From assembly GCA_964035575.1 (NCBI GenBank), contig OZ037843.1, forward strand, positions 1,054,001 through 1,118,000: DNA of 64,000 nucleotides, written 5' to 3'. The notes under the pieces are model-generated. The model was given only the letters and a program-made list of their open reading frames with translations, ran no database searches and was not told where the DNA came from. The DNA is from Rhynchopus sp. YZ270_cl-10. Lineage: Eukaryota. Position numbers and translations under genes: made by a program. The stretch's first letter is position 1; every line of letters starts with the position of its first letter. Shown piece after piece: positions 8,726-47,699 of the stretch.

Positions 8726-8836
8726 CAGTACACAGTACACAGTACACAGTACACAGTACACAGTACACAGTACACAGTACACAGTACACAGTACACAGTA
8801 CACAGTACACAGTACACAGTACACAGTACACAGTAC
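8726..8836. repeat. (CAGTACA)n microsatellite
   Basis: Perfect 7-bp tandem array. Confidence 0.97.
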
Positions 8837-9191
8837 CGTGACTTCACCGGCCAACACCGGAAAACACCGGCAAACATGGTCAAAATCAGGTGGAATATAC
8901 ATAAGTACATCATGGGGGGTAGGGAACAGGTAGCGCCGCAGGCGCACGGTACCCAACTTTTTTCTTTTTTCTTTCCCCTTTTCTCTGCTTTCTTTTGATT
9001 GCGCGAGCCGATTGCTCTCCACGGTGGGGTCACATGTGTGTCCAAAAACTATCTGAAGTGCCCTTACTGTACAATATGGGATTCTCTGATTTTCTAAAGG
9101 AAATCGTGTAATCAAAAAATTTTTGTACCGCGAAAAAACCGGGTGTGAGGGTGTGGATTTAGCGCGCGCCCTGATTGGGAACATAGGGACA

Positions 9192-15604: not shown

Positions 15605-18600
15605 CACGACGTTGAAGTAACTTACTTTACTTGTGGTTTTACATGTAATAATTTTTACTTGTGGTCACAAGTAATTACTTGTGACCACAAGTAACTTTTA
15701 CTTGTGCACAAGTAATTTTTTACTTGTGCACAAGTAACTTTTTACTTGTGCACACGGTGCGCTGGTCAGAGATCTGACCAGGTACCCAGGTACCCAGGTA
15801 CCCAGGTACCCAGGTACCCAGGTACCCAGGTACCCAGGTACCCAGGTACCCAGGTACCCAGGTACCCAGGTACCCAGGTACACGGTACACTGTGTACAAG
15901 GAAAAAAGTCGTGAAAGAGCAACCACAGCTCCACATGACAAACACAAAAGTGTCCAGTCACGTGGGGCATTCATGCACTGAGGAGATAATGTTCCAACAA
16001 TTTACAAGAAAGATTACTTAACCTACTGCTGGAAGTTGCCAGGTCGTAGTAACACACAAAGTGTGCCTCCGTTCGGGAAGACCGGATATTCTAGAGACCA
16101 AAAAGGCCTCAAGAATATCTTCCGGTAGTCAAGGTATAACCGAATGAACGGCCCAAGACCCCCGTGGAGAAGTTAAATGTTGTAATGCTATCAAGTAGAA
16201 ACTGCGACCACTGTCTTACCCTCCTCAATACATGGTGGAAGATGTCTTTGACAACAAATATCCTGTACCCAGGTACCCATATTCCCAGAACCACGCAGTA
16301 CTACGTCGCAGTACTACGCAAAATTTACCACCAGACCCTGTCTTCGTGCACCTGAAGTACAACGCCGCAGACAGGCCAAACATGCGTTGGACTCAGAGGA
16401 ATGCCCGCTGTGCAGGTATCATGAGAACCAACTCCCAGCAACAAGGGGCGCCTTTTGGCGGGCGTTGTTGAGTTGAGGGTGTTTGGGGTGCAAAGTTTTC
16501 CACAATTTTGATGCGCGGGTACAGAAGTGTTGTCTTGTTCTTTCATCTCTAGGAATGTAAATGTCAATCGCGTTTAACTACCACTAGGGCTTGTTCAGTG
16601 AACCCACGAGGGGTCGAAGGGGGTTGGTTATCCCATATCTATCAAAGGTTGTGTCGACCAGGCGAATCCACTATGTTACGCTGTACGTTGTTAAATCCGA
16701 AGAAATAACGCTTTAGCAGCCGCAGGAAGTTTGTTAAAAAGAGTGCCTCACGCTACACCCGCGATTGACTTAGATGTTATAACAAAGAGAATTCAGAACA
16801 AAACAACACCCTGCCCCATACACACTAAATTGTCATGCTTCAAGAGCATGCCTGGGCCAAAATTACTGTGACAAAAAGGCAACAAGACCACCCACAAAGA
16901 GTGTGAAATGTGCACTGGATTTCTGGGGGAACGCAATATTTTCTTGTGCCTCGTCCTCCGCAAGCAGAGGACAGACTTTCCGGAAGGTTTCCAAAGTCGA
17001 ATTTCTTGCACTAGCTATGCTCCCTGGTTAATGGCAATAGCAGTGACGGACAAAATGTTCCCACCCCCCTTCATCCGCAAACTCAGTATTGATGCAGGTG
17101 AACGTGTGTGAGTTGAATGTCGGAGACGGCGAAGGTTCTCATCGCACTCGCAGATGCTGTTCAGATTTCACGATCCTGTGATGAGTGGAAATGTGGGGTG
17201 TAGTTAGGTTATGGTAGCTTGGAAAATACAAGTTAATTCATGACTTCAAGAAAAATGGTTATCGAATTTGAGGATGTAGAAAGACAGGGACGCAAAAAGT
17301 AGTGTAAAACCCCCCATATGTGAAAATTGTATTTTCTGGGGGAGATAAAACCATACCTTGTCTGCACATTCACCATTTGTGCCAGCTCCTCTGAGGGATA
17401 GAAGCTGGTTCTGGATCAACGTGGACTGCTCTTAGGGGAACCGGGGAACCGTTCCCTGGTTCCCGTTCCGAAATGACCGGTTCATTATACTCCAGTTCCG
17501 GGGTATCGGACTGTTGGGGCCCCCTCGCCCGACCCCCAGATGACTGGCATGACAGCACCTTAATTTTTTTCTGCTCGCTGTGCTCGCGGAAGTACACCCC
17601 AAAAAAATTTCCGCTCGCTTCGCGCTAACTTTTGGAAAAAATCTGAAAAATCGTGCTTCGGGCCCAAAAAAACGCACCTCAAATAGGGTTACGTCTGGGG
17701 GTGAAAAAGCAGTGTTTTGTGGCATTTCCGAGCTGTGGTGGGGCATATTCGGAAAAGTGGACAAATTTTAGTGACTTAAATTTTCACATAATATGAACCC
17801 ATACTCCAAAACAAGGGGCATTTTCAGTCTGAAAACCCAAATTCAGATGAAATTGTGGTGTTTTTGACTGGGAACAGGTAGCGCCGCAGGCGCACGGTAC
17901 CCAACCTTTTTCCTTTCCCTTTTCTCTGCTTTCTTTTGATTGCGCGAGCTGATTGCTCTCCACGGTGGGGTCACATGTGTGTGTGAAAACACTCTAAAGT
18001 ACCCGTACTCTGAACTATGAGATTCCTCTGGTTCTAGTAAAGAAACCCCGTCTCAAAAAGTGCGTAAATATCCTTTTCCGCCCAAGAGGTCGTTTTGTTG
18101 CATTTCCGAAGACCCACCCACGAGACCTGTCAAATCTATGTGACATGTTATAAAATAACATCTAATCTCGCATGTCGTATCACCAAAAACCCTAGTAACA
18201 TTATCATCATGTGTGGGATGGTAGGTGTTCACATGACTCGTCACAACTCTTCACAACACAGTCTATGACATCTATTGTTGTGAAAGAGTTGTGAATTGAA
18301 ATGAAAATTTGTGTTCTCCAATACCCCGAACACCACCAGGAAAATTGAGCCTTTTGAGCCTTCTTTCGAGCCTTCTCAAGGGGAAAAAGTTTAATTTTCC
18401 CAGTTTGTAATTTTGTTTTGCCGTACAATTGGAAATGAAGCGTTCCTTGTGCTAGTGATCGAAGAAGACGGTGTAATCTTCTTCACAGGATTTGATCTTC
18501 GAAAATTTCAGAAATCCTTTCCGAGCAATGTCGTAGGTTTCTTATGAGGCGTTCTTCTGAGCACCCTCATAGATATTTGCTGCCTGCTTCTTCGTAGCCC

Positions 18601-18959
18601 TTCGCGATTTTGTGTTTTTGACGTTAAAATGCCTATGGGTGTTTTTTGGGGGTGAAAAAACCTCAAAAACGCGTTTTAGACCCCTAGAAAGGCTCAAAAC
18701 TGCTCAATTCTGGCTGGAATTGCAAAATTGGGCACTTTTAGGGTATGACCAAAAAAATTTTCGAGAGTTCAGTTAGTACAGAGGCGCACCTTAGAAGGTT
18801 TTGACAGGTGATTTTTACTTGTGCACAAGTAAAAAGTTACTTGTGCACAAGTAAAAGTTACTTGTGATCACAAGTAATTACTTGTGCCACAAGTAAACTA
18901 TTTTCACAAGTAAAATTACATGTAAAACCACAAGTAAAGTCATTTACTTCAACGTCGTG
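15605..18959. mobile_element. Non-autonomous TIR element with CAC...GTG termini
   Basis: TIR cacgacgttgaagtaa..acttgtggttttacatgtaa and its reverse complement. Subterminal ttacttgtg repeats. GGGG on both sides (possible 4-bp TSD). A solo end occurs at ~51144. Confidence 0.8.
15778..15882. repeat. (CCAGGTAC)n microsatellite
   Basis: Perfect 8-bp tandem array. Confidence 0.97.
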
Positions 18960-26530: not shown

Positions 26531-26688
26531 CTAAAACAGGCTTTTTGCCCCCCCCTAGGCATACTTGTCCCCCCATTATGGGGAGGGGTAAAATATGGGG
26601 AAAATATGGGGGAAATATGGGGGATTTTCCCCCCCATATTCCCCCATATTTTCCCCATATTTCCCCCATATTTTTTATGGGGGAATAG

Positions 26689-26960
26689 ATGTACTGGTGT
26701 ACTGGTGTACTGGTGTACTGGTGTACTGGTGTACTGGTGTACTGGTGTACTGGTGTACTGGTGTACTGGTGTACTGGTGTACTGGTGTACTGGTGTACTG
26801 GTGTACTGGTGTACTGGTGTACTGGTGTACTGGTGTACTGGTGTACTGGTGTACTGGTGTACTGGTGTACTGGTGTACTGGTGTACTGGTGTACTGGTGT
26901 ACTGGTGTACTGGTGTACTGGTGTACTGGTGTACTGGTGTACTGGTGTACTGGTGTACTG
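26689..26960. repeat. (TGTACTGG)n microsatellite
   Basis: Perfect 8-bp array inside E1. Confidence 0.97.
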
Positions 26961-27302
26961 TGTACGAAGGAAGAGGTACTGCTTCTGTACGTTACTTACC
27001 TACCCACCCCTCCAACACAACATTTTCGACGTTTCTCTGACGCATGAGGATTACATGGTTGTAAGTCCCTATAAGAAGGGCAAACCTGCTGACGTTTTGG
27101 TATGGGCAGAAAGAAGGGCAACATTATGAGTTCCTCTCAGACTCCCCTGTTTTGCCACCGGTGTCAGGCATCAACAGGCCTAACCGCCCAGATGGTTTCA
27201 ACACAAAGCTTCACGACATCGGGCCTTCCGGTGCCATCGATAAGGCCCTCGACACAGACGGGTTAGCATTGCCCCTGCGTTTGACCTATAGCCCGCTTAC
27301 TG

Positions 27303-27997
27303 GTACACTAGTACACTAGTACACTAGTACACTAGTACACTAGTACACTAGTACACTAGTACACTAGTACACTAGTACACTAGTACACTAGTACACTAGT
27401 ACACTAGTACACTAGTACACTAGTACACTAGTACACTAGTACACTAGTACACTAGTACACTAGTACACTAGTACACTAGTACACTAGTACACTAGTACAC
27501 TAGTACACTAGTACACTAGTACACTAGTACACTAGTACACTAGTACACTAGTACACTAGTACACTAGTACACTAGTACACTAGTACACTAGTACACTAGT
27601 ACACTAGTACACTAGTACACTAGTACACTAGTACACTAGTACACTAGTACACTAGTACACTAGTACACTAGTACACTAGTACACTAGTACACTAGTACAC
27701 TAGTACACTAGTACACTAGTACACTAGTACACTAGTACACTAGTACACTAGTACACTAGTACACTAGTACACTAGTACACTAGTACACTAGTACACTAGT
27801 ACACTAGTACACTAGTACACTAGTACACTAGTACACTAGTACACTAGTACACTAGTACACTAGTACACTAGTACACTAGTACACTAGTACACTAGTACAC
27901 TAGTACACTAGTACACTAGTACACTAGTACACTAGTACACTAGTACACTAGTACACTAGTACACTAGTACACTAGTACACTAGTACACTATAGTACA
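27303..27997. repeat. (GTACACTA)n microsatellite
   Basis: Perfect 8-bp array inside E1. Confidence 0.97.
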
Positions 27998-28979
27998 CAA
28001 GGAAAACAATAGGAAAACCCCCATATTTCCCCCATATTCCCCCATAATCCCCCATATTCCCCCATATTTGTGCAGTATTCCTGCTGTATTCCCCCCATAT
28101 TTCCCCCATATTTCCCACAAAAGTGTAGGGTACCAAAATATGGGGGAATAGGGCCTCCCCATATTGGGGGGACAAGTATGCCTAGGCATAGTGTGCAGAC
28201 GAACAAAATGTTCGTCGATGTTCGTCATGGGGGGAAAAAAAATTTTTGTTCGTCGTTGTTCGTCGTTGTTCGTCGTTGTTCGTCGTTGTTCGTCAATACA
28301 CCCCGGTACAGCAGTACCGTCTTCATATGGACCGCAACGATGTGTACGTAACGTTCGGAACGCAACGAACGTAACGAACCGAACACAACCAGGATGGAGG
28401 TTTAGAGACCTGAAAAAAAATGGCCGAAACCCACCCCTGGGGGGGAGGGAGGGAGGGTGACCAAGCAACCTTGAAAAAGAGTCTCTGAAAAAAAAACATT
28501 CCTTAACACTGAGTGTTAAGGAATGTTTCCCCTGGGAACATCTACACGAAGGGTGGAGGAACAAAGGACAAAAAAAACTGGGTATCAAAAATCTTATTTA
28601 CAGAGTCTACCTTCTAGAAAAGCTGTACAGCAGAACACGAAAAAACAAAGGCAACGCTTACGCACCCGCTCCTGTGGGGACAACCCCGGTCTTTCGACGG
28701 GGCCGTCGCCCTTTGCGGGCACATTATTCACAGGTTGGGCAACTGATATGATGTCCAACAAAAACGGTCTGAAAGTTTTAAAAAAAAATCACACAACAAA
28801 AATCACGCAGCGCATCATGTGGACAATGTGCGGGGATTTGGGAACATCCACACGCAGGATGGAGGAACAAAGGACAAAAAAAACTGGGTATCTAGTCTAA
28901 ACAAAAATCTTATTTACAGAGTCTACCTTCTAGAAAAGCTGTACAGCAGAACACGAAAAAACAAAAGCAACGCTTATTA

Positions 28980-29457
28980 CAATGTGCGGGGATTTCCACG
29001 ATTTCCCCTGTTTTGACACCCAGCGCATCCTGTGGACAACAGATCTGCTCGCGCTGTCAAACGACGAGGTGTGGCACGAGTTCAAGGCATACAGAAATCA
29101 GCCTGCCTCATGGCTGATGAGGGGTGTGTACTGGATTACTGGTGCGAGGGGAACACGAAGTTCCCCAAGTTGTCTCTCAAAGTCAAAGTTGTCGCTGGGT
29201 TGCGGACACCGCTCTCCGTGACGAGCGTGGAAGGCGTGTTCTCCACCGCAGAAGCGGCAAAGAACAAGAGGACGCGCTCAGTGAAGGCTGGAGTACGCCC
29301 GCCGACTGTTCCTCAGGAGGTCTTGCGACATTCTGGGGCTTCTCGGTGGGAATAACAAGTACCGAGAAGCCCTTGACGCAGACACGATGAGCGGTGAGGA
29401 GTTGGAAGAGGAATTGGAGTAACTTAATACTGAATTCGAAATAGAAATTATCTCATA
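28980..29457 (+). pseudogene. Inverted, frameshifted partial copy of the E2 transposase 3' end
   Basis: GDFHDFPCFD..LSNDEVW..LDYWC..LRTPLSVTSVEGVFSTAEAAKNKR mirrors 29472-29950. Confidence 0.85.
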
Positions 29458-29471
29458 ACCGGTAATAAGGA

Positions 29472-31943
29472 TCAGATAATTTCTATTTCGTATTCAGTGT
29501 CATACTCCAATTCCTCTTCTTCCGACTCCTCATCGCTCATCGTGTCTGCATCAAGGGCTTCTCGGTACTTGTTATTCCCACCGAGAAGCCCCAGAATGTC
29601 GCCAGACCTCCTGAGGAACACTCGACGGGCGTACTCTTCGGCCCCCACCGCGCTCTTCCTCTTGTTCTTTGCCGCTTCTGCGGTGGAGAACACTCCGTCC
29701 ACGCTCGTCACGGAGAGCGGTGTCCGCAGCCACGCGACAACCGCTGCAGACAACAGGGGGAACTTCTTCTGTGTTCCCCTCTTGCACCAGTAATCCAGTG
29801 CGCACACCTCATCAGCCAGAGCTGAGGCAGGCTGAGTTCTGTATGCCTCGAACTCCTTCCACACCTCCTCGTTTGACAGCGCGTGCAGATCGACTGTCCA
29901 CAGGCTGCGCTGGCTGTCGAAACAGGGGAAATCGTGGAAATCCCCGATCAACACCGTCTCTGGCTCAAAAATTAGCAGCAGCTCCCACCTGGAGCGTGAC
30001 TTCCACGAATTGTACATATTCTCCATCAGATCCTGTAGCGGCCGGGAGGTAGCTTCGCTCTTCATCATGCGCACGTACTCATCTAGGGTTTCGAGGCTGG
30101 TCTGTGCAGGAGAAGGATTCTGTATTTTGTTGATGACACCCATTGCAGGCTGGAGGAAGTCAGCAAGCAATACGCAGTCATCGACGTTCCTCTGCCAGTG
30201 GCCCTCTTGTATCAGCCGGGCCAGCACCCTGAGTGTCTCCGGTTTTTTCGCTCTGCCCATCTCGGAGTCCAGGAACTCCAAGAGGACGTCCGCCCGGTCC
30301 CGGATGTGGATCACGAGATCCATGGCGGCGCCCCAGCGGGTGTCGGAGGTGGAGGTCGGCTGTGCGGGAGCGACGACCTCAACGTTCTGAGCGTCGACGT
30401 CCACTTCCTCCCGCACGAACTGACGGGCCTTGCCCAGCACCTCCTCATCCGTTTCCGCAGCTGTGAGGCGCAGTAACGACCGCAGTGCTCGCACCTTCTC
30501 CTGCTTCAGCGCTGCCTTCACACGCAACCACGTGTCCTTCGTGCCACTCGCCTGCTCCTGTTCCTTCTGGATTTTCGCCAGTTGGAACAATTTCCATCTG
30601 CGACGCCTGGCCTTGCATCCGAAGAATTGGCTTATGAGCGTCGTAAATGCGTACGCATATTTGAACGCCTCCTTCACAGTGACTTTTAACACCGAATTAA
30701 GATGATGGCCCAGGCACCAAGCAATTTCCTCCGCGGCATCCGTCAGGCCCCTCAGATTTATCGATCCGTAGTCCGCCACTACCGTACTCCGAACAAGTTC
30801 ATAGTATGAGCGAACTTCGTGCAACAGATTCGCGACGTCCATACCCCTGTCCTGTTCACCGTCACAACGAGCTCGAACCATCAGGAGCACTGCTTCACCC
30901 CCCACAAAACCCACCACGGCTAGGAGGGCCATACCGATGTATCGAACCCCCGTGCCGTCTATCCCGAGGGCGACGGTTTTGCCTGACAATTTTTTTTTAA
31001 TGGCCTGCATTGTTTCCTCCGTGAATTGTTTGCTTTTATTGAGCAGTGAGCGCGGCTGCGGAAGCGTGACGAACATCGAGAGCACCAGTGCCAGAATACA
31101 TGCCTGCTGATGGGTTATGCCCGCAATTATGAGGGCAAGGGCCCATGCTCTTTTGAACGCCGTAGGGGAAACAATTGGCGTCAATACGGCTTGAGTCGGT
31201 GTTGGGGTAGGTGCGCTGGTCGTTTTCTGCTGCGCCTTCTCCTCCTTCTTCCCCTTCTTCTCCTCCACCCTCTTCGCGTGTGTCTTGTTCCGACCGTCTA
31301 CGTGGGATTTTACGCTCGTAATTTCTTGGTGCTTTATCATACAGCTACAAAGTGTGCACCAGAGCACCTCGTCGTCCCCCGTCATTCCGTCGGTCAGCAG
31401 CCCCTCTCTCACCTCGAAGGGCACGTCCTTGACCGCCCTGACCTCTATGCCAAACTGCTGGGTTTCTGTCAGTCCCTGGATCCTCGCGTCGGCTGTGATC
31501 TGTGGTTTTTTCCGTCGCGCCTTTTCAGCCTCGGCCTTGACGTCCGCCTTTAACTTGTTCGTGTCATTGGCCTTTTCTGTGGGTGTCAGTCCAGTCTTTG
31601 GGGAAGGTTTTGCTGCCGTCTTCGCAGAACTTTTCGCGCTTGGTTTTCCCGCAGGTTTTGCTGCTGCCTTTCCCGCAGGTTTTGCTGCTGGTTTTTCCGC
31701 AGGTTTTGCTGCAGGTTTTGCTGCAGGTTTTGCTGCTGATTTTTTTGTTGTTTTCTTTCTTGACGCCTTCCTCACGGGCTTCACATCGCTCGACTCGCTC
31801 TCGTCACTCCCGCTGCTACTGGGCTCCCTTTTCCGCTTCGACATTTTTTTTTGGGGGGTTTTTGAATCTGTTTTTATTGATGATGCCGCATTGGGGTGTG
31901 GGAAGGAAGAGGAATTGTTGGAAATTTCACTAGAAATGCACAT
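29472..31943 (-). CDS. hAT-superfamily transposase
   Basis: Zn finger WCTLC...H...H; LGIDGT; VVADYG; CLGHHLN (CxxH); DTRW; hATC dimerisation domain LDYW..FPLLS..LRTPLSVTSVDGVFS..R..VFLR; N-terminal AKPA repeats. The true start may be MSKRKRE. Confidence 0.9.
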   Translation of the reverse strand: MCISSEISNNSSSFPHPNAASSIKTDSKTPQKKMSKRKREPSSSGSDESESSDVKPVRKASRKKTTKKSAAKPAAKPAAKPAEKPAAKPAGKAAAKPAGKPSAKSSAKTAAKPSPKTGLTPTEKANDTNKLKADVKAEAEKARRKKPQITADARIQGLTETQQFGIEVRAVKDVPFEVREGLLTDGMTGDDEVLWCTLCSCMIKHQEITSVKSHVDGRNKTHAKRVEEKKGKKEEKAQQKTTSAPTPTPTQAVLTPIVSPTAFKRAWALALIIAGITHQQACILALVLSMFVTLPQPRSLLNKSKQFTEETMQAIKKKLSGKTVALGIDGTGVRYIGMALLAVVGFVGGEAVLLMVRARCDGEQDRGMDVANLLHEVRSYYELVRSTVVADYGSINLRGLTDAAEEIAWCLGHHLNSVLKVTVKEAFKYAYAFTTLISQFFGCKARRRRWKLFQLAKIQKEQEQASGTKDTWLRVKAALKQEKVRALRSLLRLTAAETDEEVLGKARQFVREEVDVDAQNVEVVAPAQPTSTSDTRWGAAMDLVIHIRDRADVLLEFLDSEMGRAKKPETLRVLARLIQEGHWQRNVDDCVLLADFLQPAMGVINKIQNPSPAQTSLETLDEYVRMMKSEATSRPLQDLMENMYNSWKSRSRWELLLIFEPETVLIGDFHDFPCFDSQRSLWTVDLHALSNEEVWKEFEAYRTQPASALADEVCALDYWCKRGTQKKFPLLSAAVVAWLRTPLSVTSVDGVFSTAEAAKNKRKSAVGAEEYARRVFLRRSGDILGLLGGNNKYREALDADTMSDEESEEEELEYDTEYEIEII

Positions 31944-32772
31944 GTCTTGTAAATGAAGACACAGAGGAAAAGCGTTGAGAGAGATGGCGAAGAAAGCGCG
32001 AGAAGAACGAAGAAAGTAAAGGTGGCCCTTAGGCTACTACTGTGGATTTTCGCAGAGCGACGACCTCAACGTTCTGAGCGTCGACGTCCACTTCCTCCAC
32101 GAACTGACGGGCCTTGCCCAGCACCTCCTCATCCGTTTCCGCACGTGTGAGGCGCAACGTCCGTTGCTCGCACCTTCTCCTGCTTCAGCGCTGCCTTGAC
32201 ACGCAACCACGTGTCAAGGCAGCAGAATTGACTAATGAGCGTCGTAAATGCGTACGCATATCCGAACGCCTCTTTCACAGTGGCTTTTAAAAACGCGGTT
32301 AGATGGTGACCGTTCTGTTGAGGAGCGCGGCTGGGGTGATCCCCGCAATGATGAGGGCAAGAACCAAAAAGCACCGGAGGGAAAAAAAAATAGCCAAGCA
32401 GGCTAAGGATTCTGAGAAACAGAAGCTTGCAAACGCCAGGTGCCAGGGCTAAGGTGGCGAAGAAAGCGCGAGTAGAAGGAAATAGGGGTAAAACAAACTC
32501 TCACTTTTATTTTTTTTGGTATTCCGGAGGGGGGCAATATTGACAGGCCCCTGCCACAAGGGAGGCCCCCCCCCCCCCCCTCCCCCCCCTCCCCCCCTCC
32601 CCCCCCTCCCCCCCTCCCCCCCTCCCCCCCCCCCCCCCCCCCCCCCCCCCCTGTGGCAGGGACCTGTTCGTCGGTTTTGTTCGTCGATGTTCGTCGACGA
32701 ACCTCGACGAACAAAACCGACGAACATTTTGTTCGTCGACGAACAAAAATGTTCGTCTGCACACTATGCCTA

Positions 32773-32804
<32 letters not shown>

Positions 32805-32805
<1 letters not shown>

Positions 32806-33786
32806 AGGGGGTATCTTAAGGGGGTGAAATGGCCAAAAAATCGAACTTTTTCGCCTGGGTGCCAAAAAAGGCACCAAACCAGAAAATATGTCCCTTGGGA
32901 CCCCAAAAATCGAATTCCGCCCGGTTTTGAGCACTTTTGACCACTTCTGAGCGACTTTTTTGCATTTTTTAAAAAGTGACCACCAACTTGTACCTGCCCA
33001 CCCCCCCGTAGGTAGAGCAACTCACATATCCATCAGCCTCAGTGTTAGCCAGGGGCCAGAAAAGCCCCCAAAGCCACATATTTCCACCCCAGAACCTATC
33101 CCGAGGGGTACCCAGGTGGTTTCGGGGTGTTTAGGGGACTTCGTGGAACTTAGAACCATGTTTCAAAAAGGGTACAAGGACGTGGTCCCTTGAGAGGGCA
33201 AGCCCTTGGTACGAGTTCCTGGACACTTCTTGAAACATGGTTCTAAGTTCCACGAAGTCCCTCTAAACACCCCGAAACCACCTGGGTACCCCTCGGGATA
33301 GGTTCTGGGGTGGAAATATGTGGCTTTGGGGGCTTTTCTGGCCCCTGGCTCACACTGAGGCGTGATGGATATGTGAGTTGCTCTACCTACGGGGGGGTGG
33401 GCAGGTACAAGTACTGTAGGCGCTTTTTTAAAATTGCATTTCAGGCATCATCTGAGTGTTTCTGTGTCAAAACTGGGGCGCTGGTGCGTTTTTTGGGTCC
33501 CCTAGGTGGTTTGGTACGGTTTTCGGGGACTTCTGAGGTTCTGAAGATCAAAATCGGGAAAATTGCTTATCGAGTACAGTGACCGGGGGGTGGGCAGGTA
33601 CAAGTTGGTGGTCACTTTTTAAAAAATGCAAAAAAGTCGCTCAGAAGTGGTCAAAAGTGCTCAAAACCGGGCGGAATTCGATTTTTGGGGTCCAAATGGG
33701 CCTATGGTGTGGTTTTTTTGACCTCAGGGGGAGTTTCCCAATTTATTGCCTACTTCACGTTTTTTGACAGCTTAAGATACCCCCTA
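32805..33786. mobile_element. Train 1, element E3: foldback TIR element (TAGGGG end family)
   Basis: TIR tagggggtatcttaag / cttaagataccccc-ta; internal palindrome centred near 33200. Confidence 0.88.
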
Positions 33787-33956
33787 GGCATACATAGCGT
33801 GCGAACGGCTCATTCGCATCATTCGCATCCTGTTCGCATTGGGTATTCGCATCCTGTTCGCATTGGCCAATGCGAACAGGATGCGAATGACATGCGAATA
33901 ACATTTATTATGGGGTGGCGACAGGCAAGTTCTCATTTTTTGGTCAATTTCCGCAC

Positions 33957-34310
33957 TACACAGTACACACAGTACACACAGTACACACAGTATACACAGT
34001 ATACACAGTATATACAGTATACACAGTATACACAGTATACACAGTATACACAGTATACACAGTATACACAGTATACACAGTATACACAGTATACACAGTA
34101 TACACAGTATACACAGTATACACAGTATACACAGTATACACAGTATACACAGTATACACAGTATACACAGTATACACAGTATACACAGTATACACAGTAC
34201 ACACAGTATACACAGTATACACAGTATACACAGTATACACAGTATACACAGTATACACAGTATACACAGTATACACAGTATACACAGTATACACAGTATA
34301 CACAGTATAC
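33957..34310. repeat. (CAGTATACA)n microsatellite
   Basis: 9-bp array with some CAGTACACA variants. Confidence 0.97.
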
Positions 34311-34713
34311 CATAGCTGATAAGCTAATAAAGCCTAATAGGATATTAGCCTATTTAAGCCTTATAGAATAGGCTAATGAAACTGGAATAGGCTAATATTT
34401 TATTAGCCTATTCCAGTCCTTCCCAGCTACCACTGGTGGTACGGTGGTAGCTGGCTTAACCCGTTAAACAAATCCGAAAAATCCAAAATTTAAGGCCAAC
34501 TCCGTTACAGACACAACACAACTTATTTCTCTTGTGTTTTTCACTGATGAGCGTGAGTGAGGTGTATGTTACAGCACCGACTGCAGCCTACGTCTAAGAT
34601 GGCATATAATAGGCTATTAGCCCAATATTAGCCTATTATAAGACATACTGTGGGTGTTATAACGTTATCGATAACGTTATAACAAGTGTTATTTTGGAAT
34701 AACGTTATTCAGC

Positions 34714-35313
34714 AGTACAGTACAGTACAGTACAGTACAGTACAGTACAGTACAGTACAGTACAGTACAGTACAGTACAGTACAGTACAGTACAGTACAG
34801 TACAGTACAGTACAGTACAGTACAGTACAGTACAGTACAGTACAGTACAGTACAGTACAGTACAGTACAGTACAGTACAGTACAGTACAGTACAGTACAG
34901 TACAGTACAGTACAGTACAGTACAGTACAGTACAGTACAGTACAGTACAGTACAGTACAGTACAGTACAGTACAGTACAGTACAGTACAGTACAGTACAG
35001 TACAGTACAGTACAGTACAGTACAGTACAGTACAGTACAGTACAGTACAGTACAGTACAGTACAGTACAGTACAGTACAGTACAGTACAGTACAGTACAG
35101 TACAGTACAGTACAGTACAGTACAGTACAGTACAGTACAGTACAGTACAGTACAGTACAGTACAGTACAGTACAGTACAGTACAGTACAGTACAGTACAG
35201 TACAGTACAGTACAGTACAGTACAGTACAGTACAGTACAGTACAGTACAGTACAGTACAGTACAGTACAGTACAGTACAGTACAGTACAGTACAGTACAG
35301 TACAGTACAGTAC
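34714..35313. repeat. (CAGTA)n microsatellite
   Basis: Perfect 5-bp array of ~600 bp. Confidence 0.97.
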
Positions 35314-35706
35314 CCCTGCTAACGACCCACCCAGAGTGGGACAAAAAAAGCTCATCCCAAAATATGCCGATCACAAAAAAATCACAAAAAACCCCGATCA
35401 TCCAACAATCACACACCCACAGAATTCACACACTACTATAACATTCGCACTACGTTCGCATCATTCGCACTATGTTCGCACTGTGTTCGCATCGTTCGCA
35501 TCATTCGCACATGCGAATATAGTGCGAATATAGTGCGAATGATGCGAATGATGCGAATGATGCGAATGATGCGAATGATGCGAATGATGCGAACGACAAT
35601 GCGAATGAATGCGAACAGGATGCGAATGCATTCGCACATGCGAATATATGCGAATGGTCATTCGCACGCTATGTATGCCTAGGGGGGGGGGGGGGGGGGG
35701 GGGGGG

Positions 35707-36673
35707 TAGGGGGTCCGACTGTGAGTAAAATTACCGTACCAAAAACTCATTATTAAACTTCTGGTCATCTCCAAGGCAACTGCGGGTGAAACACTCCCTC
35801 AGAGTGGGTCACAGGGGGCCTGTGGGCCGAAAAACGACCCAGAAGCCACCCCAGAATACAAAAAAATGGAAAAAAATAGTGAAAAAACGGCTTTTTTCAC
35901 GTTTTGGCCATGTTGGGCAAAACAGCGATTTTTCAAGAAAAAAACCAAAAAACCCCCGGAACCCCAATCTTTCCAAATTTCCACCTCATCCCCACCCAAA
36001 CACCGCAAAAACACGATAGAAAATCGTCTTTAAAAACACACTTTTTTCAAAAAGGCTATTATGGAACCCGCCTGATGACCTTTTTGAAAAAAATGTGTTT
36101 TTAAAGACGATTTTCTATCGTGTTTTTGCGGTGTTTGGGTGGGGATGAGGTGGAAATTTGGAAAGATTGGGGTTCCGGGGGCCCTTTTTCGGGGGTTTTA
36201 AGCAAAAATATGGCCGAGAATGTGGTCGGAGCAATGGTGGCAGTGCTGTCCCTAGGGTGTCCCTAGCACTTTTGGGGGTGTTTTTCAGTGTGAAAACACC
36301 AAAAAAACACTTCCAAAAGTGTCAAATATGCCCAAAACAGGTTGGAATGGACTCACAGGCCACTTTTGGGGTATATTTGTGCCAAAGGAGGCTTTGTGAT
36401 GTCAAAAAATATGCCGTTTTTTGGTTTTTTTCTTGAAAAATCGCTGTTTTGCCCAAAGTGGCCAAAACGTGAAAAAAGCCGTTTTTTCACTATTTTTTTC
36501 CATTTTTTTGTATTCTGGGGTGGCTTCTGGGTCGTTTTTCGGCCCACAGGCCCCCTGTGACCCACTCTGAGGGTGTTTTTCACCTGCAGTTGCCTTGGAG
36601 ATGACCAGAAGTTTAATAATGAGTTTTTGGTACGAAATTTTATACACAAGTCTATTAGGAGTCGGACCCCCTA
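35707..36673. mobile_element. Train 1, element E5: foldback TIR element
   Basis: TIR tagggggtccgact / agtcggaccccc-ta; long inverted arms with centre near 36070; internal sequence shared with E7. Confidence 0.88.
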
Positions 36674-37141: not shown

Positions 37142-38622
37142 CGGGGTCCACCAAAAATCGACATTTCGCAGAGTCACCAAAGTGTAAGATTTTTTCGGCA
37201 TTGGAAAGATTGGGCCATTTCTGAGAACTTCAATAAATCAGATCTCTGATGGTGTGGCTAACTCCAAAAATAAAGTGTATTTTTTGTACTTCTTTTGTAC
37301 TTTTTTTGTATACCCTAAAAAGGGGTTTTTTTTATTTTTGGTACCAATTCGTACTTTCCCAATCGCCCCAAGTCATGGCACCCAAAAGTTCCTGGCGAAG
37401 CCACGGTACGCAACATTTCTGAAAAATGTCGACATAAATTGGCACTGTCGTTGGTAATTATCGTCAGTTCCGTAAATTTCACCTAGTATTTTGCTAGAAC
37501 GAAAGTTTCTGGCGAAGCCAGGTGCGCAACATTTCAAAAAATTGCGCTTATACTTGCACATTTGTGCTGCTGAACTATGTCATGGGAAAGGGTGGGTTGC
37601 AATCTTGCGCCGCAGGCGCACGGTACGCTACTTTTTTCGTTGGTCATATCCTTCTTTCTCACTCCTCATTGGGTTCTACGAGCTCCGTCCGTAAAATGGT
37701 GGGGTCACAACATGCAGCAAAGTTCACAGCTATGCAAACTGCCCCCACGTTCACCTTGCACTTTACCCTCAGTGGTCAAGTACTGACCATATTTTACACC
37801 AAACCTGAAAATGCCCTGTAAAAACTGATGCATGCATTTTAGGTCAAAAATACTCATTTCTCAGCGCAAAGTGACCCCATCACAGCACGCACGGACTCCC
37901 GAGAATCGAAGAAGAAAAAAAAATTCCCCAATTTTTTGTAGGCCAAAAAAAAATTCCCCCCCGACCCCGACCCCCAAAAAGTTTATACAGGGAAATAATT
38001 TTTCGCGAAAAACACCCCCAAAATAAAGTGTAATTTTTGTACTTCTTTTGTGATTCTTTTGTGCTGTTTTTGTACTGGATTTAGCCACACCATCTGAGAG
38101 ATTTATTTTTAATTCCCATTTTCATATCGGGAGTTTACGTGGAAACGCCTTTGAAACCGTGCGTTCCTTAAGGATTCTATAGGCAAAACAGGCGCTTTGC
38201 ACCAAAAATCACGAGTTTCAACACAAAACCCGGTTTTGGCTCAGACCCATGTATGTGGCGCCGGAAACACGCTTGCGCGTTGTCAGAACCCTGCGTGGGC
38301 CACACACGGTCGTGCACACGTGCCCTTTGCCTTGTCACACACCCAAAAACCCACACACACGTCATATATTCACAGCGGAAACACTACAACCATTGCTGGG
38401 AAAATGTTTGGTTCACAAAGTAAAAATAACTATTCATCTGATGAAATAAAGTGCACTTTACTAGCGTCGCGAACCCCGCAAATGGGGTTGTCAGGACCAC
38501 CACAAGTAATCTTTTACGGCTGCGCCCTTTTTGCACCAACCTCTAAAAACCCACCTTTTTCCTTTCCATCCTCCACACCACAAACTAAGGCAGAAATACA
38601 CCTTTACACACCACAGTGCACA

Positions 38623-40341
38623 ATGGGCTGTCTCGAGCGTGTACTGTCGCTTGACGGGACACTGGACAAGCAAAGCAGACATATACGAAATGTATTCTTT
38701 ATTTTCAACTGCTTAGTATTTGCAACCTCGTCTTCCTTCATCCTGTTAGAGGTGGCATCCTTCCGTGGGAGCTACGTCTTTATAGTATGTGCGATGTGCT
38801 CTTTGCTGTGCAGCATCTGTTCTATGCTAGTCATTATGTTTAAGTACGAGCTGACCACATCCGTCATGGTGTCAGTCGGCGGACTGTACGCTGTTTCGCT
38901 GCTGGGCAGTGACCTGAGTGAACGCACTGAATCTGGATATGCCTGGCCATTGATGGTGCTTGTGGTGGACTATCTCCTGGTGATGCAGGTGCCCACACGG
39001 TACAGCACAGTTGTCGTGGTGTGCACACTGGTGTATTTGGTCATTATTGCTGCAGAAGAATTGTGGAGGTTTGGTCTGCTCGACATGCCCGGGCTCGCAC
39101 CTCAAGACCGTCGACGTTCCTTCGTGGATAGCCTGGGTGACTGTGATGTGCTGCCTTGCAAGCAGAATAGAGCTGGGAAAGAGCTTGTGGGTGCAGCGTC
39201 CGTCTTCGTCCTTGACTTCATCACAACGCGAAGATTTGCACGTGGTCTCCTGAAGGAGCAGGCATCAATGCAACGCACAATCGCGACAGTGCAGGACATC
39301 GCCTCGCTCCTTGCTGGCTACGACGTGGAGAAGGTGGCGGAGCTGCTGGAGGAGCACGGTGGTGAGCTGCCTGAGGGGATGACGACAGCACTGCGGAAGT
39401 TGGAGCAGAACCTGCGTGTGTACAAGGCGTACCTCCCGCAGACGTGTCTGCCGTTTGAGGACGAGAAGGACGAATGTGTGGAACCTGGTGGTGAGCTGGA
39501 TGGCACTGACAGTAACGATGAAAGCACAGGGTCAGCGGCAACATCGAACACGTCTGTTGCAGTGCGACGCACTTCCTTCCGTGCACAGTCGCTGCTGCTC
39601 TCATCCACAAATGCAACACTGCTGATACTGAACATCAAAGACACCCTGCACCGCCTGGAGGAGGACAGTGCACGCTTCTCCGACCTCTTCACAACTGTTC
39701 TTCTGAAGACCCTGCAGGCAACAGACAGCAGACGTGGGATGGTGGACGTCTTTGTTGGGGACAGGATCCACTGCTCGTTCAACACGTCGAAGCAGTGTGC
39801 GTCGCACGCAACCTCAGCACTGCATGCAGCAAGCATGCTCATGAGAGCTGGCCTGGCAGCCTCTGTGAACGTGGGTGTTGCAATGGGGACAGTGCTGCGT
39901 GGTGACATGGGTTGTGATGTGATGCGTCGCTTCAGCATGGTGGGGACACTTGTGCGCAACGTGCACGGGATGGAACGTGCAGGACGTATGCTGGGGTGCG
40001 ACGTTGTCTGCAACAGGATGTGCTTCAGCGACGCTGAGTGCGAACACGACCTGCGTCTGCTTCCGTGCAAGGTGGAGGTTGCTCGAGACTGCGAGGCACA
40101 GGTTGTGGCTGAGCTGGTTTCGAAGAACGAAGAAGCCTCAACTGCAGCAGACGAGTGGATGTACCTGATAGGCGGGAAGAAGCACTGGGATTTGTACAAC
40201 ACAGTGGTGCGTGGGTACCTGCGTGGTGAGAGTTGTTACACGGACGTTGCGAGGGCGTGGGTGGAGGCGGGTGGGAGTGGCACACCAGCACATGCAGTCC
40301 CTTCCGGGACGTGCAGTGTTGTGTGTTCCTATCTTCGGTGA
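38623..40341 (+). CDS. Multi-pass membrane protein with a degenerate class III nucleotidyl cyclase domain, paralog 1
   Basis: About 5-6 hydrophobic N-terminal helices, then KAYLP, VDVFVGDRIHCSFN, NVGVAMG..GDMG..RRFSMVG. The ATG follows ccacag, where similarity to paralog 2 begins. Confidence 0.85.
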   Translation: MGCLERVLSLDGTLDKQSRHIRNVFFIFNCLVFATSSSFILLEVASFRGSYVFIVCAMCSLLCSICSMLVIMFKYELTTSVMVSVGGLYAVSLLGSDLSERTESGYAWPLMVLVVDYLLVMQVPTRYSTVVVVCTLVYLVIIAAEELWRFGLLDMPGLAPQDRRRSFVDSLGDCDVLPCKQNRAGKELVGAASVFVLDFITTRRFARGLLKEQASMQRTIATVQDIASLLAGYDVEKVAELLEEHGGELPEGMTTALRKLEQNLRVYKAYLPQTCLPFEDEKDECVEPGGELDGTDSNDESTGSAATSNTSVAVRRTSFRAQSLLLSSTNATLLILNIKDTLHRLEEDSARFSDLFTTVLLKTLQATDSRRGMVDVFVGDRIHCSFNTSKQCASHATSALHAASMLMRAGLAASVNVGVAMGTVLRGDMGCDVMRRFSMVGTLVRNVHGMERAGRMLGCDVVCNRMCFSDAECEHDLRLLPCKVEVARDCEAQVVAELVSKNEEASTAADEWMYLIGGKKHWDLYNTVVRGYLRGESCYTDVARAWVEAGGSGTPAHAVPSGTCSVVCSYLR

Positions 40342-40468
40342 TTGTGTGGCTATTGCGTTCATGTTTAAAGTACAGTGGACTCACGTCTACTGGCACTGTT
40401 TTGCTGACCAAAATCTTCGGTAGAACAAGTTTTCCACAACCTTCCTTCCCCCCCCCCCCCCCCCCCTA

Positions 40469-41371
40469 GGCATAGGTGCCCGCCGAGTCGTTTTTGGGCG
40501 AGTTGTCGGAACTTTACGATTTCACCTAACAACTCGCCCAAAACTCGGACAACTCGGCCACAACTCGCCCTATACTCGGCACAACTCGCCCTATACTCGG
40601 CACAACTCGGCCACAACTCGGCCACAACTCGCCCATTTTTACAGGCAAAAACATACAGGGATGGGAGGTGACGTTGTAAGGTTACACACATGTAACGTTG
40701 GTACAACACATAATCTCAAGAAAAACAACCAGGGCTAAGGCCAAACGCCACTCATTACATGCACCTTGTCATATGACTAGTCATAGGTGGTAACTAGGTC
40801 GCGGTGGTCCATGGGCCACCGTGCACTTTTGGTAATTGCTGGGGGGAATGGGATATACTCCGTACATGGATACACACAGAACACACGGTTCCCCAGACAT
40901 CTGTCAGGCAATCACTGATTCACTTCACACAGGTCGGGCAGGCGCTGCCTGCCCATCCTCTTTTCCTGTCTGCTATCGATTCCAGGTTCACAACGTTCAC
41001 ACGTTTAGTCAAAATGCTTTGGGCGACGACTTCCTTTGGGATACACAAAACCACACAAAGCGCACATTCACAGACCAGCTGTGAAGCGTGGGATGCACGA
41101 GATAAAACGTGATGTGGTGTACCTGTGTACCTGTGTACCTGTGTACCTGTGTACCTGTGTACCTGTGTACCTGTGTACCTGTGTACCTGTGTACCTGTGT
41201 ACCTGTGTACCTGTGTACCTGTGTACCTGTGTACCTGTGTACCTGTGTACCTGTGTTTTTGTAGCCATAAAAAATCCCAAAAAAAAACAACTCGCCCAAA
41301 AAAAATGGGCGAGTTGTTGGCCGAATTTGGGCGAGTTGCCGAGTTGTTTTAACTCGCCGGGCACCTATGCC
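40469..41371. mobile_element. Train 2, element E6: non-autonomous TIR element (GGCATA end family)
   Basis: TIR ggcataggtgcccg.cgagt / actcgccgggcacctatgcc; caactcg subterminal repeats. Confidence 0.88.
41118..41255. repeat. (TGTACCTG)n microsatellite
   Basis: Perfect 8-bp array inside E6. Confidence 0.97.
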
Positions 41372-42563
41372 TAGGGGGTACGACTCCAGCCATTTTTTGC
41401 GCACGGAAAATTCATTTGGCATTATCTGGCCATCTCCAAGGCAACTGCGGGTGAAAAACACCCTCAGAGTGGGTCACAGGGGGCCTGTGGGTCGAAAAAC
41501 GACCCAGAAGCCACCCCAGAATACAAAAAAATGGAAAAAAATAGTGAAAAAACGGCTTTTTTCACGTTTTGGCCACTTTGGGCAAAATAGCGATTTTTCG
41601 AGAAAAAAATCAAAAACCGGGATATTTTTTGACATCACAAAGCCTCCTTTGGCACAAATATACCCCAAAAGTGGCCTGTGAGTCCATTCCAACCTGTTTT
41701 GGACATATTTGACACTTTTGGAAGTGTTTTTTTGGTGTTTTTCGGTCAAAAAAATGCCCAAGACGTCCCCAAGACATCCCCAAGACACTTTGCACACCCC
41801 CTGTTACGGTCATATTTTTTTCGTTTTTTTGCCTGAAACCCCCAAAATACCCCTCCCGGACCCCACATAGTCCCGAATATCCATCACACACCCACTCAGA
41901 GTGAGTAGAAGCACCCCAAAAAAAATATTTTTTAAAGCCCTTCAACTTCAACATGGATGCTGCCGAAACTGAAGCACAATTTTAGGGCTTTAAAAAATAT
42001 TTTTTTTGGGGTGCTTCTACTCACTCTGAGTGGGTGTGTGATGGATATTCGGGACTATGTGGGGTCCGGGAGGGGTATTTTGGGGGTTTCAGGCAAAAAA
42101 ACGAAAAAAATATGACCGTAACAGGGGGTGTGCAAAGTGTCTTGGGGATGTCTTGGGGACGTCTTGGGCATTTTTTTGACCTAAAAACACCAAAAAAACA
42201 CTTCCAAAAGTGTCAAATATGTCCAAAACAGGTTGGAATGGACTCACAGGCCACTTTTGGGGTATATTTGTGCCAAAGGAGGCTTTGTGATGTCAAAAAA
42301 TATCCCGGTTTTTGATTTTTTTCTCGAAAAATCGCTATTTTGCCCAAAGTGGCCAAAACGTGAAAAAAGCCGTTTTTTCACTATTTTTTTCCATTTTTTT
42401 GTATTCTGGGGTGGCTTCTGGGTCGTTTTTCGACCCACAGGCCCCCTGTGACCCACTCTGAGGGTGTTTTTCACCCGCAGTTGCCTTGGAGATGGCCAGA
42501 TAATGCCAAATGAATTTTCCGTGCGTTTGGTCCCAGCCAAAATGGCTGGAGTCGTATCCCCTA
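41372..42563. mobile_element. Train 2, element E7: near-perfect ~1.2 kb palindromic (foldback) element
   Basis: TIR taggggRtacgactccagccatttt; arms of ~560 bp; loop at ~41942-41983; poly-C on both sides once E6 is removed. Confidence 0.9.
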
Positions 42564-42578: not shown

Positions 42579-44181
42579 TAGGGGCTATCAAATGGGGGTA
42601 ACATTGGGCGTTTTTTCAAGTTCAAATAAAAAACGTGTTTCTATGTCTTCTGATGATGAAATCCACCCCACAGCCCCATAAAAATGACGCATGAGCCCAA
42701 AAAACCCGGTTTTGGGGTGATTAGAGACCTTTTTTTCACTTTTTCGATTTTCTGGGCACACCTAGGTACCTATGTGTGCCCTTCAGTACGTGCTTTTTTT
42801 GAAGATACGGAGCTTGATTGTGACAATTTGCGCTTTGGAGTCCTCCTGTGAGGGACGGAAGGGGGTTCACATTTTATTGTCGATTCTGACCTCGACAAGG
42901 TCATCCCTCAGCGCCCATCGGGACTCAAGCCTATTGATTCGGCTTCTTCCTTCAAGTCATCCATTAACACGTCCTTCAGCTTCGTCCGTTTTCTTGCCTT
43001 CGAGCTCACCGCGTGCACCTCTCCCCAAACCTGATCTGCAGGCTGCGCTGTGGTCCTTGGAACTTCTTGACCACTTTATAGCGCACAAGGGATTCCTAAA
43101 GCGAGCGCGGTACCCGGAGTTTTGCTGGTACTGCGCAATTTGGGACGTATGCAGAGGGTTAGCTCCTGGCAGACGGTCAGAGAGTTGCGCAAACGTTGCA
43201 TGCGAAGATTCCGTAAAATCGTTCGAATGTGGCGCCATCTCGTACGCCTGTTTGTTCTCCACAAACTGCTGTTCGTCTTTAGCCACAACTCGTGTGAGGG
43301 TGGGAATCATGGCTGCTGTCCCTTCCTTGAGAAGCTTGGCACACTGTGTCTGTTGGGCTGGCTTCAGTGTGCAGTTGATGCTGGACACGTAGGATTCAGG
43401 GAACCACGGTGGGAGTTTGGAGTTGTTATAAATTTGACAATGTAGTTAGCCAACTCTTTAACGTGGAGAAGTGGGGACGAGCTTCAGAAGCCGACAACTC
43501 ACCTTCTTGGTTTTTATCGCACTTCAATAATTTCACGGAGGAGAGGTACCACCACAGACACACCACTGACGCAGCTGAAAGTGCTGGTTTAGAGGCTGGG
43601 GCAAAATACCTTCATAGCATTGCCGCCAACAACGTATAAGGTGCCCTTCTTAACTTCCCCGCTGAGGAAATCATACTGCGGTGTCAGGTTTGCAGCTTGG
43701 CTCAGTTTCCATCCATATTTGTTGCCGATTTGGCGCACAAGCTTGGGCCTCCTCATTGGGCACCCCTATGGGGCCCCCATTAGTAGGAGAAAAGCGCCTT
43801 TTTGGTGGATAAAATTAGTTGCTTCGGAATGTCTAAGTACTGAATGTGGCAGCTATATTTTGATCGAATTCAACCCTGGTGTGGTATATTGTGGCGAACT
43901 GGGGGTTTTGAGGGAGAGCAGCGTGCCTTTGTTGACATATCATCTATCCTAGAATATGGGCACACTCAGGTACCTAGGTGTGCCCAGTTTTTGAGATTTT
44001 TTCGAAAAATGCAAAAAAAAGTTTCGCAGATGCACAAAATGGTGAAAAAACGGGGCACAGGTAGTTTTTTGGGGGGTATGTACCACATTTTCCGGTCGAA
44101 AACACTTAGAAACACGTTTTTAAAAAAAAATCGAAAAAATGTCATTTGTTGACAAAATTATACAGCATTTGATAGCCCCTA
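42579..44181 (-). mobile_element. Train 2, element E8: TIR element with a decayed transposase
   Basis: TIR taggggctatcaaatg / catttgatagccccta. The minus-strand remnant PHSNDFTESSHA..SDRLPGANP resembles E9 CTNDYVEGFNS..SGRLMNQTNP. Confidence 0.82.
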
Positions 44182-44469
44182 GGCCCCCCCCCCCTAGGGG
44201 CCGTAATGGCCTTAAGGAAGGGTGAAGCCAAACCACAAAAAACGGGAAAAACTACTTTTGACCAGGGAAAAATGCCAAAATCCACCTCAAAAACACCCTG
44301 GGACCCCCTGTCGGGCAAAAATTGGCACCAGAACCATGAAAAATGCAAAAAAAAAATGGTGAAATATGGTGAAATATGAGGTAAAATGGGTGAGGGTTGG
44401 GAGGGTACTTTTTACAAATTTTCTGATCCCCCCCGTCTCCCCTCTTATGCACAAAACTGGCTAGATATG

Positions 44470-46718: not shown

Positions 46719-47620
46719 AGTGATATCTGTACTCGTGACGTGAAGGGTGGAATGCGAGGGGAGGACACAAAAGGGAGGGAAGGATTTTTTTTTTTTTTTG
46801 TGGCGGGAAGCAGGTTTGGTAAGCGTCCGAAAGTGTCCAAGCGTCCCCACTCTTGCATTGGGGTTTGGGGTGCATCCCTTAACGTACTTTCCCCCAAACA
46901 TGGTGGGTTACACCCCCCAGGAGGTGGCAGGATGACATGTGGGGGTCCTTGGAGGCCAACGACGTGTACTTACAACTTTAACTTGAAAAAAAATATGAAA
47001 AAATACGCAAAAAACGCAGCAAAATCGGGCTAAAATAGGGCCTCGGAGCCCAAAAAACCCAAAAAAATGTCATATTTTCGACTGATAAAGCCCCAAAAAC
47101 ACATATAAACACCCTGATAACCCCAGAAAAATCATTTTGGGTGTGTTTTGGACACTTTAGATGACGCTACAGCACTTTGGGTGGTCATGCAACACATGCG
47201 GGGTATTTGAGGGAAAAGTGCGTTTTGCAACCGTTACGCAACCGTTACGCGATGCAAGAGTGGATTTTGGGGCGCATCCCTCGACGTACTTTCCCCCAAA
47301 CATGGTGGGTTACACCCCCCATGAAGTGGCAGGATGACATGCGGGGGTCCTTGGAGGCCACAGACATGTACTTACAACTTTAAATTGGATTTTTTTTTGA
47401 AAAAAAACGGGAACCTCTTTTTCAGGCTTCCACCTTTTGACGTCAGGCCAGTGTCCTAAATGATGCTGCCACACCCTGAGGGGGAGGTGTGCTGTCTGTA
47501 AACTCTGTGTGGCAACAACGGGGAGGTGACCTCCGTATATCGGCAACCCGCACGTCCTAGATGTGAAAAACGGCACCAGCCGGGACACGGTCCCGGGTTT
47601 ACTCCGGATAGAACAAAAAA

Positions 47621-47699
47621 AGAGCAGCCACACTGCTTCGGCAGCGCTAAAGAGACGAGAGTAAATACCAAGTAAAAAAAAAAAAAAAAAAAAAAAAAA
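47621..47699 (+). mobile_element. Short poly(A) retroposon family A, copy 2 (may extend upstream to ~47420), nested in E9
   Basis: Same body as 9616-9689, with a 26-nt A tail. Confidence 0.75.

Follow-up and report, generated by a model that had tools for sequence, protein, structure and literature searches.

We describe here a DNA transposon, E2, found in a stretch of 64,000 nucleotides of Rhynchopus sp. YZ270_cl-10 (assembly GCA_964035575.1, contig OZ037843.1, positions 1,054,001 to 1,118,000 of the forward strand). This whole stretch is called the window and all positions refer to it. E2 occupies positions 28187–32768 (4,582 bp). It ends in exact terminal inverted repeats (TIRs) of 19 bp, CATA...TATG, CCTAGG stands next to both ends, and the element contains one intact open reading frame (ORF), which codes for a transposase. 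Another element, E1, adjoins it on the left. The features of E2 are:

28181..28186, CCTAGG, probable left target duplication of E2 and right duplication of E1
28187..28205, + strand, left TIR, 19 bp exact, CATAG start
28210..28285, + strand, left subterminal GTTCGTCG array, 5 copies; putative transposase-binding sites, by analogy with other hAT elements
28338..28445, piece of a second abundant repeat family, similar to its array of AACG(C) repeats, recognized by contig depth and loose ends
28987..29412, + strand, copy of the 3' end of the transposase gene, inverted and with a frameshift; its third catalytic codon is E
29472..31844, - strand, intact single transposase ORF, 790 amino acids from the Met used here
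32055..32311, - strand, internally deleted second copy of the middle of the ORF
32666..32745, GTTCGTCG repeats of the right subterminal region, some in each orientation
32750..32768, - strand, right TIR, TATG end
32769..32774, CCTAGG, probable right target duplication of E2

The architecture of E2 is that of a real, ordinary-looking DNA transposon. Ends of the CA...TG type with subterminal arrays are the usual architecture of hAT elements. The interior is rearranged: besides the inverted and the deleted copies of parts of the gene, it holds the foreign repeat piece, for which no partner end was found within the window. The sequence CATATGG at 28324 was considered as the end of a nested element and rejected: it has no partner in the window either, and the resemblance to the other family begins at 28338 and goes on in the form of repeats.

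E2-like sequence is found in each of four public runs from two studies, where 73–87% of the sampled words of E2 are present; one of these runs is possibly the source of the window itself. Contig depth is about 100-fold higher at the ends of E2 than in its interior (a depth ratio, which is not a ratio of copy numbers), and no contig of the runs compared with E2 bridges a TIR and the ORF. Together with the rearranged interior, these features would fit a composite, in which the shell of a CATA-ended miniature inverted-repeat transposable element (MITE) has received a captured or nested hAT gene; the ORF would not then be the enzyme of these ends. The initial annotation had already considered an ORF in a nested element with its own ends. 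We find no inner TIR pair around the ORF, other than matches in G/C runs, and no target site duplication (TSD) that brackets it. Furthermore, contigs in three of the four runs join position 28231 to 32675–32689, as would be expected if an autonomous element had given rise to internally deleted derivatives, and the ends with their subterminal arrays are of the kind usual in hATs. A composite origin is thus very improbable. No further loci were found when metagenome and viral contigs were searched with the TIR pattern, nor when these and contigs of prokaryotic genomes were searched with protein alignment A1.

The transposase and its third aspartate

The protein starts with a low-complexity region rich in K, A and P, followed by a putative BED-like finger (C163-x2-C166), a hAT core with a helical insertion and a C-terminal dimerisation region. 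The initial annotation called it a clear hAT protein. This is not apparent from the single sequence, for which Pfam gives Dimer_Tnp_hAT with E=0.061, below the cut-off; it becomes apparent with the family profile and with the fold. Word-based homologue searches were insensitive and gave one match each, including a close relative, P0001, with 45% identity. A profile of these two sequences, both of which carry D at the third catalytic position, found 34 representatives. The alignment used below (A3) contains the query and 19 relatives: 18 of those representatives and P0156, a full-length cluster mate used in place of P0126, which is truncated. Short fragments were left out, as were P0137, which is apparently chimeric, and P0135, a degenerate copy of the window type.

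When compared with the PDB, the A3 profile finds only Hermes at E<0.001 (best value 1.1e-12), with D180, D248, CxxH, R318-W319 and E572 aligned; the two-sequence profile finds no relative there. An AlphaFold model built from A3 has a mean pLDDT of 80.9, against only 40 for a single-sequence fold. With this model, ranks 1–11 in Foldseek are all Hermes chains (E=9.8e-9, probability 1.00, TM score 0.40–0.44 by query length), while the mariner-type domain of Metnase appears only at E ~0.07. Matches in the Atlas are hAT/BED clusters at 0.94–0.96, some of them DUF7963 only. The dimerisation region PF05699 passes the curated cut-off in two of 21 relatives (P0134 and P0147) and six more give weak matches. 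The N-terminal finger has the form CxxC...H...H and aligns with the CxxC of Hermes; its Pfam matches are weak (zf-U1 at 0.084 in the query, zf-BED at 0.078 in P0126). The protein is a divergent hAT transposase, and from its sequence and modelled fold it is predicted to act as such.

Two species are named among the relatives: Diplonema papillatum, with hypothetical proteins, and Flectonema neradi, with transcripts; the remaining records come from ENA, JGI/IMG or Logan. A diplonemid host is likely from these names, although the E2 protein has only 22% identity with the D. papillatum protein. Several of the remaining relatives are on contigs whose lengths equal those of contigs with paralogues of a gene of the window; this agrees with the presence of several sister families in this genome or in related ones, which four distinct TIR families would require. 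One member of the family in D. papillatum is identical on nine contigs, which suggests recent movement with the D form described below; duplication in the assembly could inflate this count. The catalytic residues are:

30957..30959, - strand, D296, first catalytic Asp, aligned to Hermes D180
30771..30773, - strand, D358, second catalytic Asp, aligned to Hermes D248
30705..30716, - strand, C377-x2-H380, C/DxxH motif
30333..30338, - strand, R503-W504, corresponding to Hermes R318 and W319
29697..29699, - strand, D716 in V-D-G-V-F-S, aligned to Hermes E572

The residues D296, D358, C377/H380 and R503/W504 are conserved in the family, as it is seen in A3; the role of the C/DxxH motif is discussed in PMC7780238 (here and below, papers are cited for those of their parts which were accessible). 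The most distinctive trait, which the initial annotation missed, is the last one: an Asp at the third catalytic position throughout the family. Hermes S-E-R-T-F-S aligns to V-D-[S/G/A/R]-x-F-S, and in the E572 column D is found in all 14 rows which reach it, the other six of the 20 rows being gapped. Pairwise identity among six long members of the family is only 20–54%, so that the Asp should be taken as a conserved trait of the lineage and not as a lesion of this copy. A D-D-D hAT lineage is thus well supported by the alignment.

The contigs of runs X3 and X4 show an apparent E (GAA) at the third codon. We have not used this as proof that active copies have E: on the two sides of this codon the ORF is identical to its inverted copy over 31 and 37 bases, so that an assembler can swap the variants.

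Target sites and their duplication

Three other elements of the window have the same end tetramers and the same CCTAGG flanks as E2, without any long ORF. Two of them are inserted at the ends of elements of a different type, with ends TAGGGG...CCCCTA:

26560-28180, E1, non-autonomous, CATA...TATG, 16-bp TIR, CCCCCATAT subterminal repeats; 26554..28186 with the CCTAGG flanks
33789-35677, E4, non-autonomous, CATA...TATG, 17-bp TIR, inserted at the right end of E3; 33783..35683 with the CCTAGG flanks
40471-41369, E6, non-autonomous, CATA...TATG, 12-bp TIR, inserted at the left end of E7; 40465..41375 with the CCTAGG flanks
32805-33786, E3, TAGGGG...CCCCTA
35707-36673, E5, TAGGGG...CCCCTA
41372-42563, E7, TAGGGG...CCCCTA
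42579-44181, E8, TAGGGG...CCCCTA
44195-48132, E9, TAGGGG...CCCCTA

In E1, E2, E4 and E6 the continuation of the TIR and the subterminal motif differ from element to element; E1, E4 and E6 probably belong, without being autonomous, to sister families which other enzymes of this lineage move. Their TIRs and those of E2 have 12–19 bp, start with CA and are accompanied by subterminal arrays. When they are compared with the hAT consensus (T/C)A(A/G)NG, base 3 is T in all four and base 5 is G in two of them. With CATA, the (C/T)A with which hAT TIRs begin is kept (PMC6027215); with GCATA or GGCATA it would be lost.

We have shifted the ends of these four elements from -6 (inward) to +8 (outward) and looked for TSDs of 1–14 bp. 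As the initial annotation had stated, there is no duplication of 8 bp: it is absent at every register in all four, which rules out an 8-bp TSD with displaced ends. At the CATA boundary 6 bp are found in the four cases; isolated matches of 1–2 bp at other registers do not restore an empty site with a single CCTAGG. Ends of the classical TAG style, TAGGCATA, were also rejected: they would leave no duplication, and E1 and E2 would overlap. Duplications of 8 bp are detectable in this sequence, since a miniature element CAGGG...CCCTG in positions 8484–9173, unrelated to E2, has a perfect one; it is a MITE of the canonical hAT type, from this same genome.

If E4 or E6 is removed together with one CCTAGG, the intact TIR of its neighbour, E3 or E7, is regained; the empty site had therefore a single CCTAGG. 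Such a site allows a TSD of 6 bp (ends CATA), 4 bp (GCATA), 2 bp (GGCATA) or a blunt insertion of 0 bp (AGGCATA; CCT^AGG). The first three correspond to the shared flanks CCTAGG, CTAG and TA already noted in the initial annotation, which did not list the blunt case. The window alone cannot separate these lengths because CCTAGG is a palindrome.

Copies in other contigs are more informative. Runs X3 and X4 were compared with the 97-bp E1/E2 junction; of 21 rows with loose ends 12 are listed, and nine of these lie at the junction and correspond to 14 contigs. Among these listed contigs five have a perfect CCTAGG and nine deviate from it, mostly by one base. The first mismatch is at distance 6, the outermost base, in four contigs (TCTAGG three times, CCTAGT), at distance 5 in two (CATAGG, CCTAAG) and at distance 1, the base touching the element, in three (CCTAGA before CATA twice, ACTTTA after TATG once); contigs with this last type of change come from two studies. 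None of the listed junction rows has its first mismatch at distances 2–4; one listed piece starts at 28184, which is distance 4. TCTAGG is the reverse complement of CCTAGA: these are the two faces expected of a single 6-bp duplication. Since the hexamer varies at both outer bases, and with these two complementary forms, a 6-bp duplication of a preferred palindrome is favoured; models with 0, 2 or 4 bp must call the changes at distance 1 later mutations. It was such imperfect targets that the initial annotation had proposed to look for, and what it suggested, a hAT lineage specific for a sequence, with ends CATA...TATG and CCTAGG as a TSD of 6 bp, fits best, on few and one-sided junctions. Its description of the target as a fixed palindrome stands only in part: the palindrome is strongly preferred, not fixed. 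That CCTAGG is strongly preferred and that it is duplicated over 6 bp is very probable.

The same hAT-fold enzyme could act in a different way, with ends GGCATA...TATGCC and a duplication of TA (or GCATA with CTAG), CCTAGG being then a product of elements piled up at CC-TA-GG junctions. This is an exact fit to all junctions of the window. In all nine TIR elements, E1–E9, the ends read TA followed by GG, as would be explained by one model with GG ends and a TA duplication, and among the listed rows there are no mismatches at distance 2 against two at distance 5. We still find it unlikely: three listed contigs change the base touching CATA or TATG, the ends would lose the (C/T)A start of hATs, and no hAT with a TSD of 2 or 4 bp is found among those of 5–8 bp described in PMC12730594. 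The elements E3, E5 and E7 are more simply understood as TAGGGG-ended in homopolymer runs, and the ORF of E9 is unrelated to the E2 family.

Another question is whether the enzyme chooses CCTAGG at all. Outside the four elements the window has 54,985 bases, in which CCTAGG occurs 15 times. The independent sites are three and not four, because E2 sits in the right duplication of E1; that all three should be CCTAGG, given the first, has p ~7e-8. However, the bias might be due to local clustering, if an enzyme with a loose 6-bp preference inserts in repeat islands rich in CCTAGG within C/G runs. Each site in the window is found at the end of another element, the longer context CCC-CCTAGG-GGG is present in three of three independent sites against one of 12 unused ones (p=0.009), and the nine imperfect contigs include one, ACTTTA, which is far off. 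On the other hand, the contigs show other contexts too: 11 of the 14 listed are certainly within one base of CCTAGG, 13 by consensus, and several of them have unique flanks outside runs. Further perfect sites with unique flanks are found in contigs compared with E2, and the listing probably under-counts perfect sites in homopolymer runs, where contigs collapse. It is quite improbable that clustering accounts for the bias.

We conclude, with a probability of about 0.72, that E2 is a DNA transposon of hAT fold, that its ends are CATA...TATG and that its D-D-D enzyme likely makes a staggered cut of six bases at CCTAGG and duplicates this hexamer. Several observations weigh against it. The junction bases of the four elements fit 0, 2 and 4 bp as well as 6, and the TA-GG pattern of the nine elements has been described above. 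The junction contigs are few, one-sided and partly consensus; no imperfect site is known at both ends of one copy, so that the length of 6 bp is favoured by one-sided sites and not proven on paired flanks. The three mismatches at distance 1 could be due to decay after insertion or to a later break. The start CATA departs from the hAT consensus at base 3. In the protein, a search profile built on two sequences with D introduces a mild bias, and the degenerate inverted copy (P0135), left out of both A2 and A3, has E at the third catalytic codon. Finally, the left part of E2 contains a foreign repeat piece and its TIRs are not bridged to the ORF by any contig.

Established hAT chemistry consists of binding to subterminal repeats and excision with hairpins on the flanking DNA. 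By analogy, the transposase of E2 would bind the subterminal GTTCGTCG arrays and cut the element out, so that hairpins remain on the DNA beside it. The 3'-TATG ends would be joined to opposite strands at the two borders of CCTAGG, with a stagger of 6 nt, and gap repair would yield the duplication. The elements E3, E5, E7, E8 and E9 sit in runs of G or C, so that CCTAGG arises at their junctions. Targets may be supplied by these TAGGGG-ended neighbours and by the duplications of the family itself: E4 and E6 would have used junction sites of TAGGGG elements and E2 the duplication of E1. Such a supply would lead the family into repeat islands, where chains would form; the E1–E2 tandem and the chains of elements would exist because their targets come from these two sources.

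Other elements and genes in the window

The interiors of E1, E4 and E6 contain long perfect tandem arrays with repeats of 8–10 bp, rich in GTAC/GTATAC, which adjoin the subterminal regions:

26690-26960, tandem array of E1
27299-27990, tandem array of E1
33950-34310, tandem array of E4
34713-35310, tandem array of E4
41120-41255, tandem array of E6

The TSD length of E3, E5, E7 and E8 is unreadable in the poly-G and poly-C runs where they lie. In E8 and E9 the right C run is preceded by an unexplained GG, which gives CCTAGG on both sides there too. E9 also has a frameshifted gene of DDE-like type (45318–46907 and 44470–45366), with CxxH and TND-x-x-E-like motifs. It has no Pfam match and is not similar to the E2 family; its Atlas match is 0.93 to eukaryotic clusters. 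Nested in E8 there is a TIR element with CTGGGCAC ends in T runs (42752–43987). Another TIR element, with CACG ends in G runs, is found in positions 15605–18959.

A non-LTR (long terminal repeat) retrotransposon with two long ORFs lies in positions 253–8260 on the - strand. Its frame of 2030 amino acids contains an OTU-like protease, an apurinic endonuclease, a reverse transcriptase and an RNase H; an N-terminal OTU domain is unusual in this type of element. Two paralogues of a large family of membrane-anchored cyclase-like genes, of which 366 relatives were found, are present in positions 38155–40341 and 48149–50059.

Comparison with known systems

Neither a DDD hAT nor a CCTAGG-specific hAT was found in the literature searched, which lies outside Repbase, Repbase Reports and subscription papers. 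The label "DDD/E" appears in the accessible part of PMC11008031 only in a generic sense, and that of PMC12621601 has nothing specific to this system. In the supplement of PMC12730594 we did not find the terms hAT5, hAT6, hATx or Diplonema. The genome paper of D. papillatum names TATE, MULE and Helitron; in the parts seen, hAT is absent from the main text and from seven supplement files, and CCTAGG from the supplements (PMC10161547). Our results add elements of hAT type to the inventory of diplonemid repeats.

The closest known system is Hermes (PDB 4D1Q, 6DWW, 8EDG). E2 shares with it the fold, D180 and D248, CxxH, R318/W319, a putative BED-like finger and the C-terminal dimerisation region, as well as short TIRs starting with CA and subterminal repeats. 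They differ in E572, which is D in the E2 family, and in the following R, which is S, G or A in most members; structural identity is 14–15%. E572 is one of five key residues, and the E is unchanged in plant hATs judged to be active (PMC6027215). Both Hermes and hATx-6 have preferences within an 8-bp target, which for Hermes are T2 and A7 (PMC8721813), whereas the E2 family has a near-fixed hexamer and no 8-bp TSD.

A TSD of 6 bp alone is not new. Most hATs have 8 bp, but those named hAT5, hAT6 and hAT7 have 5, 6 and 7 bp (PMC12730594), and hATs with 7 bp are also present in Repbase (PMC4455052). E2 resembles hAT6 in the probable length of its TSD. They differ in their relatives: hAT5 and hAT6 are placed among Blackjack and other animal hATs, and hAT7 with the Ac type of fungi and plants (PMC12730594), while the named relatives of E2 are diplonemid. 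The comparison with hAT6 concerns TSD length and group placement alone, not termini, target preference or the third catalytic residue. A strongly biased TSD, TATATATA, has been described in hATm-3 of Hydra (PMC8721813); it has 8 bp and a microsatellite-like target, in contrast with the GC-rich palindrome of 6 bp used here.

The E2 family thus lacks two canonical features of hATs, E572 and the 8-bp TSD of the Ac, Buster and Tip groups, and matches them in fold and in the other catalytic motifs. Given this mixed match we place it as a variant within hAT and not in any named subgroup; the termini, targets and triads of hAT6 could lower its novelty. It may represent an undescribed, deep-branching lineage centred on diplonemids, in which the switch to D-D-D, the shortening of the stagger to six bases and the near-specific use of CCTAGG go together, the third Asp and the short target being mechanistically linked. 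We offer this wider view tentatively, at somewhat less than even odds.

The hAT enzymes described have D-D-E and mostly loose targets of 8 bp. A natural lineage which combines the Hermes fold and D-D-D with a rare palindrome and a stagger of probably 6 bp offers a route to what sets target spacing and specificity in hAT and RAG-like enzymes. It is testable, as D. papillatum, a model that can be transformed, has near-identical copies. If a transposon is restricted to a rare hexamer, it would also serve as a useful and more predictable tool for gene delivery. The piggyBac and mariner/pogo transposases combine a DDD triad with a short fixed palindromic target, TTAA and TA respectively. Their likeness to E2 is one of logic only: they belong to different superfamilies, and Foldseek puts Hermes first. 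If the wider view given above is correct, the D-D-D/CCTAGG lineage would be the hAT counterpart of the TTAA rule of piggyBac.

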